A DNA stretch of 11,858 nt, from UHGV virus genome UHGV-0338394; one strand, 5' to 3'. Source of the DNA: a virus. The position numbers and the translations under genes are program-made. This document shows, piece by piece, positions 2,477 to 11,858 of this stretch. The notes beneath the pieces were generated by a model. The model had not been told where the DNA came from. It saw only the letters and a list, made by a program, of their open reading frames with translations, and ran no database searches. The number at the start of each line of letters is the position of its first letter. The first letter of the stretch is position 1.

Positions 2477-2648
2477 TTACTTCCGTGTTGCAGGATGCGC
2501 CACCGCCCGGAGCGGCGAATTAGTCGAGTTCGTTTATATCGTTGACGCCCGCAGCGCGATCAGCGCCAAAGCTGAGGCGCTAAATCAGGCCAGAAATGAA
2601 CGCCTTTCCCACATCCAGATTACCCGCGTTCGTGAGGTGGCGGCATGA
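2469..2648 (+). CDS. Small hypothetical protein (59 aa)
   Basis: AGGGGG ribosome-binding site at 2456-2461. ATG at 2469 overlaps the upstream stop (ATGCTTAA). Confidence 0.45.
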   Translation: MLNYFRVAGCATARSGELVEFVYIVDARSAISAKAEALNQARNERLSHIQITRVREVAA

Positions 2649-2959
2649 GCATGTATGACGATTTAGTGTCCTGCAAATTTGATGGTTGTACACCTGATGA
2701 TCTGAACGGAATTGAGAGCTGCGCCAGTGATGCCGTGGATGATTTAATGCTGGGCGTAAGTGCCATTGGTAGCCTCATGTTCTGGGCGGCTGGTAGCGAT
2801 GGCTACCCGGAGGAAAGCGCTAAGGCTGATATGTACAGATTAGGCGCAATGCTGGGACATATCGGAGAAGTTGCGCGGGCGCTGAACGATAGCGCTGCAA
2901 ACGCCGCATTCTTGCGCTCAATCAGTGAAAAAGAAGCCAAAGGGAGGGCGGGCAAATGA
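2645..2959 (+). CDS. Hypothetical acidic protein (104 aa)
   Basis: ATGA start/stop overlap with the upstream gene. Continuous + strand operon. Confidence 0.6.
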   Translation: MSMYDDLVSCKFDGCTPDDLNGIESCASDAVDDLMLGVSAIGSLMFWAAGSDGYPEESAKADMYRLGAMLGHIGEVARALNDSAANAAFLRSISEKEAKGRAGK

Positions 2960-3219
2960 ACATAACTACCATCTATCGCCACCCGGCAGAGCTGGAAGCC
3001 GAAGCGATGTTATCCCGCGAGCAGGCTTACCCGGATGATTTTACGCTGGCAGACCGAACGGCAGAACGCATGACCCGCGCCCGCAATGGGCTGGCTCACG
3101 TTATGACCGAATTAGCCCCGCACATGGACGCAGAGCAAACAGCAGCCGTCCAGTGCTGGCTGATGAAGGTTTTGGCTATTGTCGATGCCACCCTGATTGA
3201 TGCGGAGGGCAGCGCATGA
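2956..3219 (+). CDS. Hypothetical protein (87 aa)
   Basis: ATGA overlap with the upstream gene. Confidence 0.6.
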   Translation: MNITTIYRHPAELEAEAMLSREQAYPDDFTLADRTAERMTRARNGLAHVMTELAPHMDAEQTAAVQCWLMKVLAIVDATLIDAEGSA

Positions 3220-3842
3220 GCAACGCACCGACCATTAAATCGGGAAATGCCGACTTATTACACGCCGAAGCCACACCGCACGGCGTCAATATCATGACCC
3301 GCAATGATGCCGGGGGATATGAGCAGGTTGCTCTTATCAGCTACGAGAGCGCCGTGAACGGCCTTGACGCCGGAGAGTACGACGATAAGCCAGATATCGG
3401 ATACGCCATTCATTTTGCCGTTGCTGATGGCGGGGCGCGTGGCTGGTTCGACTTCACCGCGCAGCATAACGTCACTATGTGGCGCTGGCTGATTGCTGCG
3501 ACGTTCATTTCTGAGATGAAGCGCGAAAACGGCACAACCACGGTAACTGAGTCTGACGGCACTTCATCGCAGGTGGCGATTTACTCCAATGGCACGGCGG
3601 GGATTGTGGTTTACCCGTTCGCGGAACGTCTGGCGATGGCTAACAACATGGAGGGCGCAATGGTTGAGCGCTACGGCATTGAGCAGGGAACAGCGAACGC
3701 CATTGTTTTTTATCAGGCCATGATCGACACGGAGCGCGGCGAGTTGACCCCGTTCGGGCGTGAAACGCTTGCTGAACTTCACAACAGCTTTATAGCTGAA
3801 CTGGATGAAAACGGCTGGCCTGAAATGCCGCTGCCGCACTGA
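3216..3842 (+). CDS. Hypothetical protein (208 aa)
   Basis: ATGA overlap with the upstream gene. Long ORF with ordinary amino-acid composition. No motif I can assign. Confidence 0.65.
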   Translation: MSNAPTIKSGNADLLHAEATPHGVNIMTRNDAGGYEQVALISYESAVNGLDAGEYDDKPDIGYAIHFAVADGGARGWFDFTAQHNVTMWRWLIAATFISEMKRENGTTTVTESDGTSSQVAIYSNGTAGIVVYPFAERLAMANNMEGAMVERYGIEQGTANAIVFYQAMIDTERGELTPFGRETLAELHNSFIAELDENGWPEMPLPH

Positions 3843-3851
3843 GGGGGCGAC

Positions 3852-4193
3852 ATGATTACTAAAAATTTCCGACTGAATGCGCTGGCGAATAAGTATGCGT
3901 CGGCACTGTATAACCACATTACCTCCACCAGCGGCGGGGACTATTTCATGGTTGATGCGGACGGCCTCGCCGTCCGTGTGGAAATCGTCAATGGAGTAAA
4001 AGGCGTTCGCAGCCTGATCGATAGCTACACACTGGCAGCCATGAAAGTGTCCTACCCGCAGTGGGAAACCGTGGGGATAGAGATTCTTGATCGTTGCGTC
4101 ACTAATGACGGATTGACTGACGTCGGGCGTGAGATATGGCAAAGCATGGTTAAAGACATGGGCGCGACCGTGGCAGGGGGCAACCATGCGTAA
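3852..4193 (+). CDS. Hypothetical protein (113 aa)
   Basis: GAGGGGG ribosome-binding site upstream of the ATG at 3852. The stop overlaps the primase start. Confidence 0.65.
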   Translation: MITKNFRLNALANKYASALYNHITSTSGGDYFMVDADGLAVRVEIVNGVKGVRSLIDSYTLAAMKVSYPQWETVGIEILDRCVTNDGLTDVGREIWQSMVKDMGATVAGGNHA

Positions 4194-6627
4194 TATCGAC
4201 CTTATCCGCGAAGTGACCAGTGCCGCCGCCGGGCGCTGGCCTTATGTGCTGGCTGGATTGTCTATCGACGTGCCTGATTCATCGCGCCGCCATTCTCCAT
4301 GCCCTGCATGTGGTGGGAAAGACCGTTTCAGATTCGACGACAACGGGCGCGGTAGCTTTATCTGCAATCAGTGTGGCGCTGGTGACGGTTTAGACCTGAT
4401 TAAGAAGGTGAACAACTGCGACACCACAGAAGCGGCGAGGCTTGCCGCTGATGTGCTGGGTATTGATTACCGGGCAGCGCAAACCGACCCGGTGGCAGCG
4501 AGCCATAGAAGAGAGCAACTGGAAGCTGACCGCCAGCAGCGTGAGCAGGAGCGCCAGAAACAGGCAGCAGAGGATGCAGAGCAGCGAAGGGCTACGTTTG
4601 CCCGTCTGTATGCCGGAATGCGCCAGAGTGCCACACAGGGCGAATCTGATTACCTGCAATCAAAAGGGCTGACCGGGTTTAAATATCCGGTAATGCCGGA
4701 TGGTTCGTTATTGCTGGAGCTGGTGGACGAATCCGGCGCAGTGGCAGCAGCGCAAACCATTACACCGCAGGGAGAGAAGCGACTCCTGACAGGTTCAGCA
4801 AAGCGCGGGGCATATCACGCCGTAAACGCGCCAGAATCGCCGCAGAGCGTTTTAATTGCCGAGGGGCTGGCGACGGCCCTTTCAGTTCACCTGATGCGCC
4901 CGGACGCGCTGGCAGTGGCAGCAATTGACGCGGGCAACCTGCTACCCGTTGCCGAAGTGATGCGCCGGATATATCCAGCCACGCAGATTATCATTGCCGC
5001 AGATAACGACCACCAGCAGGACGAACAGGCGAACACGGGCAAAGATGCCGCAGAGAAAGCCGCCTTATCCGTGGCTGGCTGGGTGGCGCTGCCGCCGACA
5101 GACTACAAAGCCGACTGGGACGACTACCGCCAGCAAAACGGGCTGGAAGTCGCTACGGCTGCGTTTAACGATTCGATGTACCAGATTCAGGGGGAAGCCG
5201 TGAAACCACAACTACAGGCCATTGCGGGCGGTAAATCCCGCCGTAAAGCCGAAGTCGGAGATATTGCACAAATGGCAGCCAGCCAGAAAGCGCGGTTGCT
5301 TTCATCTCGCTGGGATATGTTGGCGGTCAACCCTGATAGTGGCGCTGTTTACTGCTACGAATCTGGCGTATGGGAGAAGCTACCAGACAGTGAATTAGAA
5401 AGGGTTATGGTGGCAATTTTCGACGAGCACGAAGCCCACTACACCGAAAAGGGGATTAAATCGGTTGTCGCAACCATGAAGCTGCAAATACCGGTAATTG
5501 GTGAGCGGAGCGGGGATCTGATTGGTTTTGATAACGGCGTTTATGACCTCGCCACGCAGACGTTTTCCGCCCATTCGCCGGGTAACTGGCTGATGAACCA
5601 CAATGGGATCACCTACACCCCGCCAGCGCCGGGGGAAAATATTACCACCAGCGCCCCCAATTTTACCCGTTGGCTGAATCATGCAACGGCTGGCGACCAT
5701 CATAAGGCCGAGCGTATCAAAGCAGCCTTGTTTATGGTGCTGGCGAAGCGTCACGACTGGCAGCTATTCATTGAGATAACTGGCGAGGGCGGCAGTGGGA
5801 AATCCGTATTCAGCAGCATAGCAACCACGCTGGCAGGTGAACACAACACCGCCAGCGGTAGCATGATGACGCTGGACACCGCACGGGGACGGGCGCAGTT
5901 CGTAGGGAAAAGCCTGATTATTATGCCTGACCAGACCCGCTACGTTGGAGAGGGTGCGGGGATTAAAGCCATTACGGGCGGCGATCCGGTAGAGATTGAT
6001 GGGAAATATGAAAAGCAGTTCACAACCGTGATAAATGCCGTTGTTATGGCAACCAATAACGAGCCGATGACATTCACGGAGCGAAACGGGGGCATTGCCC
6101 GCCGCCGCGTGATATTCCCGTTTAATAACCCGGTATCAGACGCAGACAAAGACCCGGATTTAACCGCAAAAATCAGGCGAGAAATCCCGGTGATTATCCG
6201 CCACCTGCTAACCACCTTTGCCGACCAGAACAAAGCAAAGGCACTATTACTAGAGCAGCGCGATTCGCAGGAGGCGCTAGAGGTTAAACGCGGCACGGAT
6301 CCGGTTGTCGATATGTGTGCGGCGCTTTTTTTCATGAACGAACCCAAAGGCATGATGATGGGCGGAGGTACATGGGCAGGCCAGCCAGAGCCGAGGACGT
6401 ATCTTTATCATCTTTATCTGGCGTTTATGGAGTATCACGGTTTGGGTAAACCGCTTTCCGTCAATAAGTTTTCACGCGCCATAAAATCAGCAGCAAAAGA
6501 GTACCGAGCCAGCTACCTGACGAGAAGCATTAACGGCAGAGCGCAAACCAACGTTGGCTATAACGAGAAGGCTGAGGAGTTCATGCCCCGTGCTTACGGT
6601 GTGGAGAGCGGGCAGAGTGATGATTGA
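4186..6627 (+). CDS. P4 alpha-type DNA primase-helicase (zinc ribbon, Toprim and SF3 helicase domains), 813 aa
   Basis: Start taken at ATG 4186 (AGGGGG site at 4175-4180) rather than 4129. Zinc ribbon CPACGGKDRFRFDDNGRGSFICNQCG, Toprim acidic residues (VLIAEGLATALS and IIIAADNDHQQDE), Walker A GEGGSGKS, Walker B-like SLIIMPDQ, and SF3 motif C VVMATNNEP. Confidence 0.9.
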   Translation: MRNIDLIREVTSAAAGRWPYVLAGLSIDVPDSSRRHSPCPACGGKDRFRFDDNGRGSFICNQCGAGDGLDLIKKVNNCDTTEAARLAADVLGIDYRAAQTDPVAASHRREQLEADRQQREQERQKQAAEDAEQRRATFARLYAGMRQSATQGESDYLQSKGLTGFKYPVMPDGSLLLELVDESGAVAAAQTITPQGEKRLLTGSAKRGAYHAVNAPESPQSVLIAEGLATALSVHLMRPDALAVAAIDAGNLLPVAEVMRRIYPATQIIIAADNDHQQDEQANTGKDAAEKAALSVAGWVALPPTDYKADWDDYRQQNGLEVATAAFNDSMYQIQGEAVKPQLQAIAGGKSRRKAEVGDIAQMAASQKARLLSSRWDMLAVNPDSGAVYCYESGVWEKLPDSELERVMVAIFDEHEAHYTEKGIKSVVATMKLQIPVIGERSGDLIGFDNGVYDLATQTFSAHSPGNWLMNHNGITYTPPAPGENITTSAPNFTRWLNHATAGDHHKAERIKAALFMVLAKRHDWQLFIEITGEGGSGKSVFSSIATTLAGEHNTASGSMMTLDTARGRAQFVGKSLIIMPDQTRYVGEGAGIKAITGGDPVEIDGKYEKQFTTVINAVVMATNNEPMTFTERNGGIARRRVIFPFNNPVSDADKDPDLTAKIRREIPVIIRHLLTTFADQNKAKALLLEQRDSQEALEVKRGTDPVVDMCAALFFMNEPKGMMMGGGTWAGQPEPRTYLYHLYLAFMEYHGLGKPLSVNKFSRAIKSAAKEYRASYLTRSINGRAQTNVGYNEKAEEFMPRAYGVESGQSDD

Positions 6628-6644
6628 AACTTTTACGGCGGCAC

Positions 6645-6893
6645 TTATCCCTACTGCCCTACTAAAAACGAGACGAGGCCAGACGTAGCAAGGCTTTAAA
6701 CTAGGTAGGGATATATATTTTTATCCCTACTTATCCCTACTTATCCCTACCAAATAAAACAGGCAGCAAAATGCCGTTGAAGTGATTTAGTAGGGATAAG
6801 TAGGGTTATGTAGGGCAACAAAATTGAATGCCTACCAGTCTGAAAGCCTTGCCATTCGTGGCCTGAGCCAGTTAGTAGGGATTGGTAGGGATA
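6645..6893. repeat. Iteron array, probably the replication origin: at least ten copies of TTATCCCTAC / GTAGGGATAA in both orientations
   Basis: Direct copies at 6645-6654, 6721-6730, 6731-6740 and 6741-6750 (a head-to-tail triplet). Inverted copies at 6704-6713, 6790-6799, 6800-6809, 6810-6816, 6875-6883 and 6884-6893. An A-rich spacer lies between the clusters. The array is immediately 3' of the primase gene, as ori/crr is in P4. Confidence 0.7.
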
Positions 6894-6945
6894 TTACACC
6901 CCCAAAAAGATTCTATGGGGGGGTAGCTTATAACGAAGGTGGGCA

Positions 6946-7248
6946 ATGAATACAGAAACCAGCCAGAAAATGACCTATCAGGAGCGTGAAGCATTGAAGG
7001 GGTTTACTGACAAACGCGCATTACAGGGCGACACCCAAAGCCTGCAAATGACCTTGAGGATGATCGCCCACTGGATGAGGCAGCCAGCAGAAATTGGATT
7101 TACAGAATATGCAACACACTGGACGGCAGCACAGGCCGGACGTGATGACGGGAATCACTCGACCGCAGCAATGGCGGAGCAGTGGCCTTTAAGGGAAGAA
7201 ATGAAAATTATCCCCGGAGGTAGTGACTACATGAGGAAATATCTATGA
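6946..7248 (+). CDS. Hypothetical protein (100 aa), first gene of the four-gene accessory operon
   Basis: GAAGGTGGG ribosome-binding site. The stop overlaps the next gene's ATG (ATGA). Confidence 0.6.
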   Translation: MNTETSQKMTYQEREALKGFTDKRALQGDTQSLQMTLRMIAHWMRQPAEIGFTEYATHWTAAQAGRDDGNHSTAAMAEQWPLREEMKIIPGGSDYMRKYL

Positions 7249-7706
7249 CAGCACAAATTTCAGCATACGGGCGGCTGGTGGCAGATCCCCAGACCCGTAC
7301 CACAGCAAACGGTACAAGCATGGCAATGGGCCGGTTAGCGGTGGCACTGCCCTGCCATGCAGCAGAGGGCGGAGAGGTTACTTTCTGGCTGGGCGTGGTG
7401 GCATTCGGCAAACAGGCCGACGCACTGGCAGGACACGTTAAAGGCGATTTAGTCAGTGTTGCCGGAGCGATGCAGATCAATCAGTGGACGGGCAAGGATG
7501 GCGGTACACAGCAAGGTTATCAGGTAGTAGCCGACAGCGTGATCAGCGCCAGAACGGTACGCCCCGGCGGGAAGCGGGCCGAATCAGTCAAAGCAAGCGG
7601 AGCCAGCAGGGGCCACACAACACAATCCGCGCCGGGATGGGAGTTATATAATACCCCTGATGATTTTGACCAACGCCCACCATTCGACGATGAAACGCCA
7701 TTCTGA
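7245..7706 (+). CDS. Single-stranded DNA-binding (SSB) family protein with an acidic C-terminal tail, 153 aa
   Basis: The OB-fold core aligns by eye with E. coli SSB ([15 protein letters not shown] against [38 protein letters not shown] against [33 protein letters not shown] against RKWTDQSGQ). The C-terminus FDDETPF resembles the SSB tail DFDDDIPF. Confidence 0.85.
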   Translation: [153 protein letters not shown]

Positions 7707-7716
7707 GAGGGAAGAT

Positions 7717-8361
7717 ATGAGTACGCAACCCATCATTATTGAGTTCGGCAGCTATCGCTGGCCCAGACATCTTGCAATACATGAAGCAGGTCATGCGATA
7801 GCCGCATGGTTGTTCGGCATACAGGAGGTAGAAATTGCGTTATCGGGTAATAACCGAGTGGCAAAAACCTACCTTAGAGGAGATGTTGATGAATGTGGAG
7901 CTGTAGCGGTATGGCAGCACGGCAACTATCCACGGAATGTGGCTGAGGTTAAGTCTTACAACCTCTCGAATGATGACACCAGGTTACGTCTGATAGACCA
8001 GGTATGCCGGGATATGGTTATCTCTCTAGCTGGTATCGTCGCGCAATCACGCTATACGGGGGATGATATTAACGCACTGATGGAAACGTCCGGGAAAGCA
8101 GACATGAAAAATGTTCGTGATTTATCAGAGGTATACCGGGTGGCTGGTGGAGAGGATGCTGATATACAGAGAATATCCCTTTCCCGTGCTGAGGCGCTGA
8201 TTGCCCTGAAATGGTGGGATGTTATCGCGCTGGCGAAAATACTGGAGAACCGTAACCATATGCCTGCCAGAAACTTCCAGCGCATTATGGGTGATATTGA
8301 CAAGCCTGTACCAAAGCCTATGACGCTGGCTGAACTGGATGAATTGGTGGGTGAAGAATGA
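7717..8361 (+). CDS. Stand-alone HExxH zinc metallopeptidase, FtsH (M41)-like motif HEAGHAI, no AAA+ module, 214 aa
   Basis: GAGGG ribosome-binding site 5 nt before the ATG at 7717. RHLAIHEAGHAIAAWLFG matches the FtsH active site TAYHEAGHAI. The downstream LAGIVAQSRYTGDDINALMETSGKAD resembles the M41 region carrying the third zinc ligand. No Walker motifs are present. Confidence 0.65.
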   Translation: MSTQPIIIEFGSYRWPRHLAIHEAGHAIAAWLFGIQEVEIALSGNNRVAKTYLRGDVDECGAVAVWQHGNYPRNVAEVKSYNLSNDDTRLRLIDQVCRDMVISLAGIVAQSRYTGDDINALMETSGKADMKNVRDLSEVYRVAGGEDADIQRISLSRAEALIALKWWDVIALAKILENRNHMPARNFQRIMGDIDKPVPKPMTLAELDELVGEE

Positions 8362-8708
8362 AGCCATACATTCTGGCAGCCGTCCTGATCTCATCGGCAC
8401 CGGCACTATCTGCTATCCATTGTGGGGGCTTTACCATACAGCCAGACCGTTATCGGACAACGATTAACGGCGATGTGGTTCATATTGTTGATGCGCAATT
8501 TTACGGCGCACCGCGAGACTTTAGCCAGGCCGCCATAAAGTTATTGCCGGATGCCATTACCACTACCGATAGGCAATACCGACTGGAGACGCAGGGAGGC
8601 AATGCCTTGCTTGAGTTGATGACCAGAGAAAACCCGCCACGTGTGCTTAATCGTGAGCGCTGCGATGCCGGGTTAACAAGATTCGGTTGGTACACTTCTG
8701 CGCCGTGA
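8358..8708 (+). CDS. Predicted secreted/periplasmic protein with an N-terminal signal peptide, 116 aa
   Basis: ATGA overlap with the peptidase gene. N-terminus MKPYILAAVLISSAPALSA has the form of a Sec signal peptide with an Ala-x-Ala cleavage site. Confidence 0.6.
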   Translation: MKPYILAAVLISSAPALSAIHCGGFTIQPDRYRTTINGDVVHIVDAQFYGAPRDFSQAAIKLLPDAITTTDRQYRLETQGGNALLELMTRENPPRVLNRERCDAGLTRFGWYTSAP

Positions 8709-8892
8709 TGTTCGTTCCGAGCGCAGCCTAAAATCAACGGCGTGACGCGGGCGATTCGCACCACAACCACACAGGGCGTCATAGAACGGGATAGACTTCT
8801 GCGACAATTTGCATTCGCCGCCAATATAGCAAGCCGTCCACATCAAGCAATAAACTATCACCGGGAGGGGGTAGTCAAATCTCTACAGCCCT

Positions 8893-8926
8893 GACTGTCC
8901 GGGACTGCCCGCCCCATCGTTTTTTT
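8893..8926 (+). terminator. Possible weak terminator after the four-gene operon
   Basis: GC-rich segment GTCCGGGACTGCCCGCCCC followed by a 7-T run (8920-8926). The stem is imperfect, and the T-run could instead pair with the downstream A-run. Confidence 0.25.
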
Positions 8927-8986
8927 ATACCCGCAAAAAATGAAATTTAATCCGGGCGTGTTTCATCCTTCCAGAGGGTATGACGT

Positions 8987-9172
8987 ATGACACCACGCGA
9001 AATAGCCTTATTGACCATCGCCAAACTTGAGCACGGAGGCCACCAGCTTACACAGGCAGATCAACGGGAGATAGAACGCTCAGTTAATGCCGATATAGCC
9101 CGGCGCGACAGGTTCCGCGAAATGATGCGAGCACCTGCCTACCAGTGGAAGAAGCCAGCGCCGCGCAGGTAG
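8987..9172 (+). CDS. Small hypothetical protein (61 aa)
   Basis: AGAGGG ribosome-binding site 8 nt upstream of the ATG. Charged, helical-looking sequence. Could be spurious. Confidence 0.4.
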   Translation: MTPREIALLTIAKLEHGGHQLTQADQREIERSVNADIARRDRFREMMRAPAYQWKKPAPRR

Positions 9173-9229
9173 ATATGGGATTATTCCACATGTAACTTAT
9201 GCGTATTAAGCAAATTTCCTTTATTCACC

Positions 9230-9259
9230 TTTACAGAATTGTGAGTACGTCAGTATCGT
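9230..9259 (+). promoter_or_regulatory. Candidate sigma70 promoter for the PRiA4_ORF3-like gene
   Basis: TTTACA at 9230-9235, an 18-bp spacer, and TATCGT at 9254-9259, in an AT-rich intergenic region. AGGA ribosome-binding site at 9284-9287 before the ATG at 9293. Confidence 0.3.
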
Positions 9260-9292
9260 TATCCTTCCGATTCGCATTTATTCAGGATTTGC

Positions 9293-9835
9293 ATGTACCA
9301 GCTAAAGATAACCATCCGAGACAGCAAACCACCTATATGGCGGCGTGTGCTGGTTCCAGAGCAAATCCCCTTTAGTAAACTTCATGCCGTGATCCAGTTA
9401 GCTTTTGGCTGGAATGACGAACACCTGTATATGTTCGAGAAAGGGCGTAAAGGTGATCCAGGTAGCGAGTATCACGTATGGGGTGAGGATGAAAGCATGG
9501 GTAACGCGGCAATCACGCCACTATGGGCGGCGCTCCAGAATGAGGGTGACAAGCTGGTTTATACGTATGACTTTGGCGACTGGTGGGATTGCGTCATTGT
9601 GCTGGAGAAGCAAACACACGATACGAGTAATCAGCCCATTAGCTGCCTGCGTGGGAAAGGCACCACCCCGGCGGAAAACTCAGGCGGCTTGCATGGTTAC
9701 AATGAATTGCTATTACAGGCCAGAGAGTCTGATAATCCTGAGCAGGCCGAGATCCACAATTTCCTGATGCTGGATATTGAACGCCGGGTTTACGACCTGA
9801 GCCGCATCAACGACAGATTGCAGGCTATTAACTGA
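9293..9835 (+). CDS. PRiA4_ORF3-like protein (plasmid pRiA4b ORF-3 family), 180 aa
   Basis: N-terminal signature LKITIRDSKPPIWRRVLVPEQIPFSKLHAVIQLAFGWNDEHLYMF matches my recollection of the family's PpIWRR...LH..IQ.aFgW..HLh.F pattern. Assigned from memory. Confidence 0.75.
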   Translation: MYQLKITIRDSKPPIWRRVLVPEQIPFSKLHAVIQLAFGWNDEHLYMFEKGRKGDPGSEYHVWGEDESMGNAAITPLWAALQNEGDKLVYTYDFGDWWDCVIVLEKQTHDTSNQPISCLRGKGTTPAENSGGLHGYNELLLQARESDNPEQAEIHNFLMLDIERRVYDLSRINDRLQAIN

Positions 9836-10187
9836 CCCGCATGTATTCACCTGATATTGCGTTATCAGCGCCGCCAGTATCGCGCATAACAGCGCACTGA
9901 CCTGGTAAACCGTAGCGCACGACCGTTGCGTTAGTTTCACCGCCGCGCCGTATCTGGCGCGATTCATACACTATCACCCGCTCAAGCAACCCACCAGCAA
10001 CCATGCTTTCCAGTGTGCGCCGGGTTGATTCGATCTGGTGGCGCTTATCGAACGACACCATGCCATGAAGCAGGTAGGCCACACCCGACACATCGAACGG
10101 CGGCGCACCAATCTCACCAGTCACCCATTCGAGGTTATCCGGTTCAAAGTAGCTAAGTATCTCTTTTTTGCGGCTGGTCATTCTCAT
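9828..10187 (-). CDS. Hypothetical protein, possibly a winged-helix DNA-binding protein (119 aa), convergent with and overlapping the PRiA4_ORF3-like gene
   Basis: Minus-strand ORF whose 3' end overlaps the 3' end of 9293-9835 by 8 nt. An AAGGAA ribosome-binding site lies upstream on the minus strand. The segment RRTLESMVAGGLLERV is reminiscent of a winged-helix recognition region, a weak inference. Confidence 0.55.
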   Translation of the reverse strand: MRMTSRKKEILSYFEPDNLEWVTGEIGAPPFDVSGVAYLLHGMVSFDKRHQIESTRRTLESMVAGGLLERVIVYESRQIRRGGETNATVVRYGLPGQCAVMRDTGGADNAISGEYMRVS

Positions 10188-10199
10188 GGCTGGCAGGTT

Positions 10200-10233
10200 C
10201 CTTATTGTGGGATAGCGGTATCATACAATAAGG
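10200..10233 (-). promoter_or_regulatory. Perfect 9-bp inverted repeat CCTTATTGT-N16-ACAATAAGG covering the ribosome-binding site of the minus-strand gene
   Basis: Arms at 10200-10208 and 10225-10233. On the minus-strand mRNA the AAGGAA site lies inside the proximal arm, 12-13 nt from the start codon at 10187. Confidence 0.4.
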
Positions 10234-10443
10234 CGCAAAAGATAAGAGGCCAGAACAGCAAGCATGAGAGCATAAAATGAGCAGCCAAAGACAGCACCTC
10301 AAAATACCGTGTACACAAGGGTGTACCTACTTAGAAAACGCATTACAAGGAATCCAGTAACCACGCAGCCTAGAGACTCCTACTCAATAAACAGATTCAA
10401 TTGAGTAACTCGTAACACTAATTCTTACTTTTCAGCCTTCACA

Positions 10444-10476
10444 AATGCCGCCCACTCAAACAGAGCGGCATTTTTC
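10444..10476 (+). terminator. Orphan intrinsic terminator-like hairpin (AATGCCGC-N13-GCGGCATT followed by TTT)
   Basis: 8-bp stem (10444-10451 pairing with 10465-10472), a 13-nt loop, and a 5-T run to 10475 that overlaps the stem end. No + strand ORF ends within about 600 bp upstream. Confidence 0.45.
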
Positions 10477-10565
10477 TTCCCCGCAACTTCAATTCTGTTT
10501 TGCGTGCCTGCTCCAGATTTTGCGATGTTTTTTTGCCCAGCACACTGAGAACGTGAGATACTCAA

Positions 10566-10585
10566 AACTGTATATAAATACAGTT
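10566..10585. promoter_or_regulatory. LexA (SOS) box of dinD
   Basis: AACTGTATATAAATACAGTT contains the CTGT-N8-ACAG core and matches the LexA operator of E. coli dinD as I remember it. It lies about 45 bp upstream of the dinD start. Confidence 0.85.
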
Positions 10586-10628
10586 ACAGATTTACTTTCT
10601 TTGCAATCGATATCACATGGAGTGGGCA

Positions 10629-11453
10629 ATGAACGAACATCATCAACCTTTTGAAGAAATACGGCATTATGGCACTGAAGGGCAAGAATTTTGGTCAGCT
10701 AGAGAATTGGCACCGTTACTGGATTATCGGGACTGGCGCAATTTTCAAAAGGTACTGGCCCGCGCGACTCAAGCGTGCGAAGCCAGCAATCAAGCTGCAT
10801 CTGACCATTTCGTTGAAACCACCAAAATGGTTGTATTAGGTTCAGGGGCTCAACGAGAACTTGAAGATGTTCATCTCTCCCGCTATGCCTGTTACCTGGT
10901 AGTACAAAACGGCGACCCTGCGAAACCGGTTATTGCGGCAGGGCAAACTTATTTTGCTATCCAGACCCGACGGCAGGAGCTGGCTGACGATGAAGCTTTC
11001 AGGCAACTTCGTGAAGACGAAAAGCGTCTTTTTCTGAGAAATGAATTGAAAGAACATAACAAACAATTGGTTGAGGCAGCGCAGCAAGCTGGGGGAGCGA
11101 CAGCTATCGATTTCGCCATATTTCAGAATCATGGTTACCGGGGGCTGTATGGTGGATTAGATCAGAAAGCTATTCATCAGCGGAAGGGGCTGAAAAAGAA
11201 TCAGAAGATCCTGGATCATATGGGTTCAACAGAACTGGCGGCTAATCTCTTTCGAGCTACCCAAACAGAAGAAAAACTCAAGCGGGATGGCGTGAATTCA
11301 AAACAGCAAGCAAACACCACACACTTTGACGTGGGTCGCAAGGTGAGGCAAACCATTCAGGAACTTGGCGGAACCATGCCTGAGGAGTTGCCGACCCCGC
11401 AGGTCAGCATCAAGCAGTTGGAAAACAGTGTAAAAATTACAGAGAAGAAATAG
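10629..11453 (+). CDS. dinD: DNA damage-inducible protein D (274 aa)
   Basis: Translation beginning MNEHHQPFEEIRHYGTEGQEFWSARELAPLLDYRDW matches my recollection of E. coli DinD. GGAG ribosome-binding site 6 nt before the ATG at 10629, which I prefer to the ORF-track start at 10617. The LexA box lies immediately upstream. Confidence 0.88.
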   Translation: MNEHHQPFEEIRHYGTEGQEFWSARELAPLLDYRDWRNFQKVLARATQACEASNQAASDHFVETTKMVVLGSGAQRELEDVHLSRYACYLVVQNGDPAKPVIAAGQTYFAIQTRRQELADDEAFRQLREDEKRLFLRNELKEHNKQLVEAAQQAGGATAIDFAIFQNHGYRGLYGGLDQKAIHQRKGLKKNQKILDHMGSTELAANLFRATQTEEKLKRDGVNSKQQANTTHFDVGRKVRQTIQELGGTMPEELPTPQVSIKQLENSVKITEKK

Positions 11454-11743
11454 CAGAAACTAAAAACTCTTTTTGTTGATTGAGACACCCGATGCGTAAG
11501 CCAAGGTCCAGGTGCAGTGAACACAATGGCTAAATATTGCACCTTTCTTTTCCCCCCTCAGTTTTAACCTATTTTTTCTTATGCATTTTCTCAGACAAGA
11601 AGTCAGAAGAATGCATCTCTGCTACAGAAAATAGCGATTTCACATAACTACAAGTTATCAATTTCCCCTCACCTTAAAAAATCTCAATCGTGACAATGCG
11701 CACAAATCGCTACCCTGCCAGACAGATTTTTAGGGAGAGAACC

Positions 11744-11858
11744 ATGCTGTTACACATTTTGTATTTGGTTGGCATTACTGCCGAAGCCATGACGGGGGCG
11801 CTGGCGGCCGGACGACGGCGCATGGATACATTTGGCGTAATTATTATTGCGACCGCCA
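11744..11858 (+). CDS. yicG: UPF0126 inner-membrane protein YicG, 5' partial (first 38 codons; continues past the window end)
   Basis: GGGAGAG ribosome-binding site then the ATG at 11744. Hydrophobic N-terminus MLLHILYLVGITAEAMTGALAAGRRRMDTFGVIIIATA is consistent with the UPF0126 (YicG/YadS) family and with the dinD-yicG order in E. coli. Confidence 0.8.
   Translation, partial: MLLHILYLVGITAEAMTGALAAGRRRMDTFGVIIIATA

Follow-up and report, generated by a model that had tools for sequence, protein, structure and literature searches.

Proteolysis by FtsH is regarded as dependent on the AAA+ unfoldase to which the protease domain is fused, and FtsH itself is a housekeeping gene whose product has a transmembrane anchor, a periplasmic domain and the AAA+ module. 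The virus genome UHGV-0338394 contains, in the 11,858-nucleotide stretch analysed here (the window), a gene for a 214-residue protein, M41L, which is very probably a stand-alone, M41-like version of that protease domain and has none of the other three elements. Its identity to the protease domain of FtsH, YME1 and AFG3L2 (MEROPS M41, PF01434) is only 13–20%, about 45 residues that follow the third-ligand helix of FtsH are missing, and the β-region after the active-site helix (residues 38–66) is larger than in FtsH. The M41L gene, in contrast to the housekeeping ftsH, is borne by an island that, judged by its genes, resembles the phage satellites known as phage-inducible chromosomal islands (PICIs).

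The proteins closest in build are database entries named “peptidase M41 family protein” or “Peptidase M41 domain-containing protein”, which have about 190–240 residues and consist, like M41L, of the protease domain alone; examples are WP_112872398.1 from E. coli 30COLEC, the UniRef name of P0013, and A0A6J5RJ76 from an uncultured Caudovirales phage. Single-domain M41 proteins already exist, then, as automatic annotations, and M41L, labelled “hypothetical protein” in RefSeq, falls below the curated thresholds. No functional study of single-domain M41 proteins was found in the literature, and nothing relevant on stand-alone or phage-associated M41/FtsH-like proteases or on PICI metalloproteases. 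A second likeness is to ImmA/IrrE (COG2856, M78), which, like M41L, is a small HExxH protease of mobile elements encoded beside regulatory or recombination genes, and whose anti-repressor biology with ImmR is established for prophages and integrative and conjugative elements (ICEs). At locus L017, the gene of a distant M41L relative starts within the 3′ end of, and so overlaps, a gene for a LexA/S24-type repressor, in the manner of immR–immA; the element also has AlpA and a primase. An uncharacterised Vibrio cholerae protein from structural genomics (5iqj_A, 131 residues) is shorter than M41L.

A soluble lone domain with a predicted zinc site of FtsH type

Two alignments of the family were used, one of close homologues (A1, a shallow profile) and one of 36 sequences including distant relatives (A2). 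The latter was built by adding relatives from a profile search run exhaustively on 1.84 billion representative proteins; it yielded 71 relatives, nearly all of them stand-alone and 170–280 residues long. FtsH was not recovered from the PDB sequences by phmmer or by the shallow A1 profile. With the A2 profile, all 18 matches at E < 1 were FtsH, YME1, AFG3L2 or chloroplast FtsH/FtsHi chains. The best of them (E 1.2e-7, hmmsearch) was 2di4_A, the isolated protease domain of Aquifex FtsH, which aligns in three collinear pieces: the HEAGH helix, a LAGxxAE...G...sGxxD segment and the C-terminal helices; T. thermophilus FtsH (4eiw and 2dhr) aligns in a single stretch over profile positions 17–199. 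An FtsH profile composed of four protease-domain sequences, of which the E. coli one was verified to be identical to residues 389–608 of PDB 7vhp, was matched to A2 by hhalign with a probability of 98.2% (E 3.9e-14, 152 columns); against a single FtsH sequence only the C-terminal helices were aligned. Some metagenomic relatives carry a precomputed PF01434 assignment.

A first AlphaFold model, made from 20 close homologues, had a predicted local distance difference test score (pLDDT) of 72 and gave weak Foldseek matches (E 0.06–1), already enriched in FtsH. The model made from the 36-sequence A2 reached a pLDDT of 94, and M41L has in it the three-dimensional fold of the FtsH protease domain. 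The 60 matches listed include no ImmA/IrrE, SprT or M50 structure. Of the predicted viral structures, the one that matched best was a 214-residue “Peptidase M41 domain-containing protein” from an uncultured tailed phage, followed by giant-virus FtsH homologues. A preliminary description of this gene, made from the letters of the DNA, had proposed an FtsH-like (M41) peptidase, to be told apart from the ImmA/IrrE (M78) and SprT folds; the profile comparison and the second model decide for FtsH and exclude the alternatives. We hold with high confidence that M41L belongs, by fold and family, to the M41 protease-domain superfamily, from whose other members it has diverged far. It is not an FtsH proper, since the transmembrane and AAA+ features of that protein were looked for and are absent.

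The HEAGH motif (residues 22–26) lies within RHLAIHEAGHAIAAW and is followed by the acidic segment LAGIVAQSRYTGDDINALMETSGKAD (residues 104–129), both of them in the 214-residue translation just as the preliminary description had it. The resemblance it saw between the latter and the third-ligand segment of FtsH is borne out by D129, which aligns with the Asp of FtsH TGA(S/E)ND, the third zinc ligand (D492 in the 644-residue numbering of E. coli FtsH), in the helix past the L-G-G-x-x-A-E segment. An HExxH motif alone is weak evidence, as 149 of 20,000 shuffles of M41L (0.75%) contain one. The motif is conserved among homologues: across the 36 sequences, down to 18% identity, only E23, A24, H26, G106, A109 and D129 are invariant, H22 is kept in at least 90%, and the LAGxxAE/Q segment, with G106 and A109, is conserved. 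Within the 20 close homologues HEAGH is invariant save for one Pectobacterium sequence with Gln for the first His. That copy (P0016, at 8001–8663 of L015, Pectobacterium brasiliense) reads AIQEAGH in a gene that is otherwise intact; it is perhaps inactive, or else a sequencing variant. The ratio of non-synonymous to synonymous substitution rates (dN/dS) of M41L against diverged homologues is 0.09–0.21, which indicates purifying selection; together with the conservation of the residues, this low ratio shows that the HExxH is real and M41L a selected coding gene.

The preliminary description had also noted the lack of Walker motifs and of a transmembrane N-terminus, and this stands. The 214 residues contain no Walker A motif (GxxxxGK[ST]) and no AAA match in Pfam, and the maximum Kyte–Doolittle hydropathy over 19 residues is 1.33, so that a transmembrane segment is not expected; the N-terminus reads MSTQPIIIEFGSYRWPRH and the isoelectric point is 5.3. 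No separate AAA+ unfoldase gene was found in the island by Pfam scan or in its RefSeq annotation. A program-made list of open reading frames (ORFs) gives a longer frame of 233 residues from position 7660; the true start is placed at 7717, where the translation begins MSTQPIIIEF, because all homologues begin with MSTQ or its equivalent, the RefSeq start is identical and a GAGGGA Shine–Dalgarno sequence precedes it.

Exchange, neighbours and spread of the M41L gene

Comparison of near-identical islands indicates that M41L is exchanged as a cassette. The island of E. coli 30COLEC (L025) has flanks 98–99% identical to the window, and the part corresponding to window positions 7208–7999, comprising the 3′ end of the small gene orf100, the ssb gene for a single-stranded DNA-binding protein (SSB) and the first 283 nucleotides of M41L, is replaced there (L025 3900–5000) by a 57-residue gene and a second type of M41L, variant 2. 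Variant 2 is 29% identical to M41L, bears the PGAP name “peptidase M41 family protein” and occupies the same slot after the primase. The swap leaves a C-terminal remnant ORF of 115 residues in 30COLEC; the remnant protein (P0027) is present on about 100 contigs. In enteropathogenic E. coli E2348/69 (L034), variant 2 lies right after the integrase, convergent with the gene of a RosmerTA-like RmrA. The RosmerTA-like pair, at L034 10780–12647, stands between the integrase and AlpA at the same yicC–dinD site, and its RmrA is matched in PADLOC at 3.5e-125. The window type was found in 28 of 5426 complete E. coli genomes (full length in 26) and variant 2 in 53 of them.

In five contexts, and with several M41L types, the start of the M41L gene is abutted or overlapped by the gene of a conserved protein of about 58 residues (KPVLLS..QM.AI..IQE.R..S..GVAPT.H.IARGL..KAL; loci in Table 1), often preceded by a conserved protein of 183–220 residues. 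At E ≤ 0.01, Pfam matches neither of these two proteins, and the window lacks both. A ribbon-helix-helix-like identity was considered for the shorter one, and the Pfam and PDB profile searches gave it no support.

The close homologues (56–99% identity) come from Enterobacterales only, or from assemblies labelled otherwise, and are found in the same kind of island, often in the same yicC/yicG–ligB region. Their immediate neighbours vary. The order is ssb, M41L, orf116 in E. coli-like islands, orf116 being a small gene whose product has a signal peptide; ssb, M41L, PerC in Klebsiella; ssb, a ProQ-like gene, M41L and a 356-residue gene in Pectobacterium; and ssb, a 331-residue gene, M41L and a 356-residue gene in Dickeya. 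In a rabbit-gut metagenome-assembled genome that has no primase or ssb, the order is PerC, a 62-residue gene, M41L and a 105-residue orf116 homologue. An orf116 homologue (51% identical) is likewise coupled to M41L in L005, and orf116 is missing from the Klebsiella, Dickeya and Pectobacterium islands. In all window-type islands with a primase, ssb precedes M41L, either directly, at 8–13 nucleotides (E. coli-like and Klebsiella), or with one gene between (Dickeya and Pectobacterium); it is not next to the other M41L types.

The genes around M41L in the window are tightly packed, as the preliminary description had remarked: orf100 and ssb overlap by an ATGA at 7245–7248, M41L and orf116 by another at 8358–8361, and 10 nucleotides separate the ssb stop (7704–7706) from the M41L ATG. 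From this packing it had drawn a candidate partner or substrate, the SSB-like or the secreted neighbour. The structural part of its interpretation stands. As to this part, because the neighbours vary and near-identical islands have swapped the cassette, neither is an obligate partner, and both SSB and orf116 were rejected as such.

More distant relatives, down to 23% identity, reside on a range of mobile elements, from satellites and contigs like capsid-forming PICIs to ICEs and islands. Relatives at 23–29% identity lie 3′ of D5- or DUF927-type primase-helicases, at a distance of 1–1.5 kb on the IMG/VR contigs (23–27% identity), and are followed by small-terminase (terS), major-head and neck genes, for which reason these elements look like capsid-forming PICIs. 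Single relatives precede an integrase, precede an HTH_17 (excisionase-like) gene, follow an AAA_25 helicase or lie within a CTnDOT-like ICE. A tblastn search of 50,697 GenBank phage records returned no match. Three metagenomic proteins of 400–480 residues (P0071, P0074 and P0079) carry the M41L domain at the C-terminus and a hydrophobic stretch, and the N-terminal part of P0071 and P0079 has a weak likeness to lambda tail assembly protein I; the three could be forms of the protease associated with phage tails. Two others (P0160 and P0185) are fusions of a soluble AAA+ with an M41-like domain, have no transmembrane segments and seem to stand midway from FtsH to the lone domains.

The island around M41L

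Positions 6900–8750 of the window are 100% identical to E. coli 2017.17.03CC, where the island spans about 12.5 kb, from int to a 119-residue ORF, between yicC and dinD. Its genes are, in order, an integrase, a hypothetical gene, AlpA, a second hypothetical gene, AntA/AntB, DUF4222, an Icd-like gene, several small genes and a P4-family primase, and past the primase orf100, SSB, M41L, orf116, a 61-residue gene, a PRiA4_ORF3 protein and the convergent 119-residue ORF. An integrase, AlpA, a primase with an adjacent origin, a length of about 10–15 kb, the lack of structural and lysis genes and a single transcriptional orientation are all features of PICIs, and the island shows them. In gene content, size and single orientation, the island matches published classical PICIs (PMC11773190, PMC13612085); judged from the genes alone, the host element would be a PICI-like phage satellite. 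No exact direct repeats of at least 12 bp that could be att sites were found flanking the island.

The iteron array between the primase stop and orf100 is very probably the satellite replication origin. M41L-type genes usually lie 0.9–2 kb 3′ of the primase-helicase gene in satellite-type loci, a usual position next to the replication module. No family assignment was found for orf100. The tail of the satellite SSB is long and disordered and has an acidic tip. In PADLOC-DB 2.0.0, no match was found for M41L, orf100, SSB, orf116 or five other M41L variants. The features are collected in Table 1.

Table 1. Positions of M41L and its neighbouring features in the window, and of the ~58-residue protein in other loci
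Feature	Position	Strand	Remarks
P4-family primase-helicase	4186–6627	+	Zn-ribbon, Toprim, D5_N, DUF5906, Pox_D5; Pfam, RefSeq annotation
Iteron array TATCCCTAC	6640–6895	.	at least 10 copies, both orientations, 10-bp phasing; repeat search
orf100	6946–7248	+	first gene of the post-origin block; kept in sister islands L024 and L025
Satellite SSB, 153 residues	7245–7706	+	OB fold and acidic DDETPF tip; Pfam SSB 1.1e-14, PHROG 44 5.9e-30
Shine–Dalgarno-like GAGGGA	7707–7712	+	5–10 nt 5′ of the ATG at 7717, directly past the ssb stop; read from sequence
M41L, FtsH-type (M41-like) zinc metallopeptidase domain, 214 residues	7717–8361	+	
HEAGH zinc-binding/catalytic motif (H22, E23, H26)	7780–7794	+	near-invariant in 36 homologues; aligns with FtsH HEAGH
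D129 codon, predicted third zinc ligand	8101–8103	+	invariant in A1 and A2
orf116, small protein	8358–8708	+	N-terminal Sec-type signal peptide (MKPYILAAVLISSAPALSA); sequence read
~58-residue protein	L005 9820–10008; L025 4114–4287; L034 9825–10001; L029 5678–5962; L030 5759–6001		

The window is a mosaic with respect to the closest complete genome, that of E. coli 2017.17.03CC (L001). The right-hand 9.2 kb (2634–11858) are 99.7% identical, positions 235–1860 only 89.5%, and about 1860–2270 are unrelated, a pattern which indicates that the left regulatory module has recombined. Further right, at 9293–10187, the gene of the PRiA4_ORF3-family protein (Pfam 8e-43) is overlapped at its 3′ end, by 8 nucleotides, by the convergent 119-residue ORF, and both are kept in the sister islands. 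The chromosomal dinD gene that flanks the island (10617–11453, with a Bro-N domain) matches the PADLOC candidate-defence model PDC-S13 (4.8e-124) and a “Type I specificity subunit” model.

Possible roles of M41L

M41L, whose predicted zinc site is intact, is probably catalytically competent. As to its activity, ATP-independence and class of target, we infer the following. M41L would be a soluble cytoplasmic zinc endopeptidase made of an FtsH-type protease domain alone, with the zinc held by H22, H26 and D129 and E23 acting as the general base, and it would probably be expressed from the block just past the origin, along with the satellite SSB. Since it has no unfoldase of its own, it would most likely cleave, without ATP, one or a few specific proteins at a stretch that is accessible or disordered. 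The helper phage, the host or the element would supply the target, which would be cut while the satellite is active. The cassette swap, the movable position and the nearness to a defence system suggest a conflict or regulatory role, akin to that of ImmA/IrrE with a different fold, and make a housekeeping role in satellite replication less likely. An ATP-independent, conflict-related endopeptidase is the general picture that we favour, though by a modest preference; helper manipulation, interference, defence and counter-defence are candidate roles, each of them much less likely when taken singly.

Several observations speak against this picture. To our knowledge, FtsH-type protease domains act only on polypeptides fed to them by an AAA+ ring, and the isolated M41L domain may be little active alone. 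In P0016, a natural homologue, the first zinc His is replaced by Gln. Sequence libraries respond poorly: a Pfam scan of M41L gave only a sub-threshold Peptidase_M50B-like match on the HExxH helix (18.4 bits) and none to PF01434, the NCBIfam scan only one irrelevant match of 12.9 bits, and the PHROG and PADLOC scans nothing; relatives of M41L score 22–27.6 bits on PF01434, on the HExxH helix only, under the gathering threshold of 29.9 bits. The published descriptions of PICIs that were found make no mention of such a protease gene. Both types are rare in E. coli (28 and 53 of the 5426 genomes), which argues that M41L does not serve an essential satellite function. The genomic contexts, finally, leave the choice between a regulatory role, helper interference, defence and counter-defence undecided.

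Other explanations differ mainly in what the domain would act with or upon. The shortness of HExxH motifs, and the fact that the sole direct Pfam match is the M50B-like one, could suggest a protease of another family (ImmA/IrrE M78, SprT-like or M50-like) or a chance motif in a non-protease; on the fold, each of these identities was rejected, and the idea is effectively refuted. A different proposal keeps the fold and supplies the motor from elsewhere: a hexamer of M41L would dock on, or mix into, a separate hexameric ATPase, be it host FtsH, another host AAA+ unfoldase or the SF3-type (superfamily 3) primase-helicase of the satellite, and re-target or poison ATP-dependent proteolysis, for instance that of lambdoid CII, CIII and Xis, which are FtsH substrates. 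In favour of this, the FtsH module with this fold makes up the hexameric base ring, conservation within the family peaks in the C-terminal helices that match FtsH (KWWDxIALAKILENRNHMP hardly varies), the gene recurs beside hexameric primase-helicases of two types, and metagenomes contain the soluble AAA+ fusions P0160 and P0185. We nevertheless consider such a ring improbable, as the FtsH segment of about 45 residues past the third-ligand helix is deleted, SF3 helicases translocate DNA and not protein, and there are islands where M41L occurs without a primase (L005) or far from it (L034).

SSB could instead be the substrate, M41L cleaving or binding the disordered C-terminal tail of the host, helper or own protein; the satellite SSB encoded next to it would be a partner or a replacement. 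The long tail with its acidic tip is a plausible substrate for a protease that has no unfoldase, and every window-type island with a primase has ssb ahead of M41L. The adjacency is variable, which weakens this explanation to the point where we give it very little credence: a ProQ-like gene or the gene of the 331-residue protein is inserted between the two in Pectobacterium and Dickeya, L005 has a window-type M41L and no ssb, none lies near variant 2 or the types of L030 and L031, and ssb was lost in L025 upon the swap; adjacency may moreover merely reflect the replication module. Closer in spirit to the endopeptidase favoured above, with which it overlaps, is an accessory anti-phage defence or counter-defence cassette outside the life cycle of the satellite, in which the protease would be the effector and would, upon phage infection, cut a protein of the host or the phage and so abort the infection or disarm a host defence; a small protein encoded alongside might restrain it. 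Near-identical islands differ exactly at the M41L cassette, which shifts its position in the island, sits beside the RosmerTA-like system in E2348/69 and has a low prevalence; the ~58-residue protein stands at the M41L start in five independent contexts, and defence hotspots are known from PICIs and P4-like satellites. Taken as a specific claim, it is about as unlikely as the borrowed motor, for none of the variants has a PADLOC match, the window copy has no ~58-residue partner, and the post-primase position is kept over deep divergence and with two primase types, which resembles a function linked to that module.

Speculatively, and with the odds still well against it, AAA-less M41-like proteases could form an unrecognised class of conflict effectors of satellites and other mobile elements, acting either as ATP-independent site-specific proteases on a target of the helper phage or host or as a cap or poison of a separate hexameric ATPase such as host FtsH or a primase-helicase, and exchanged as specificity cassettes. 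If true, this would be a new mechanism of defence, counter-defence or helper manipulation. A conserved M41 family that has neither motor nor anchor, is under purifying selection and keeps its catalytic residues makes one ask by what means a domain of this sort recognises and cleaves its substrates, and its residence on satellites, capsid-forming-PICI-like elements, ICEs and islands, together with the cassette swap, suggests a part in the conflict between phage, satellite and host or in the regulation of the element. Naming M41L gives satellite biologists a candidate for knock-out and protease biochemists a minimal M41 domain.
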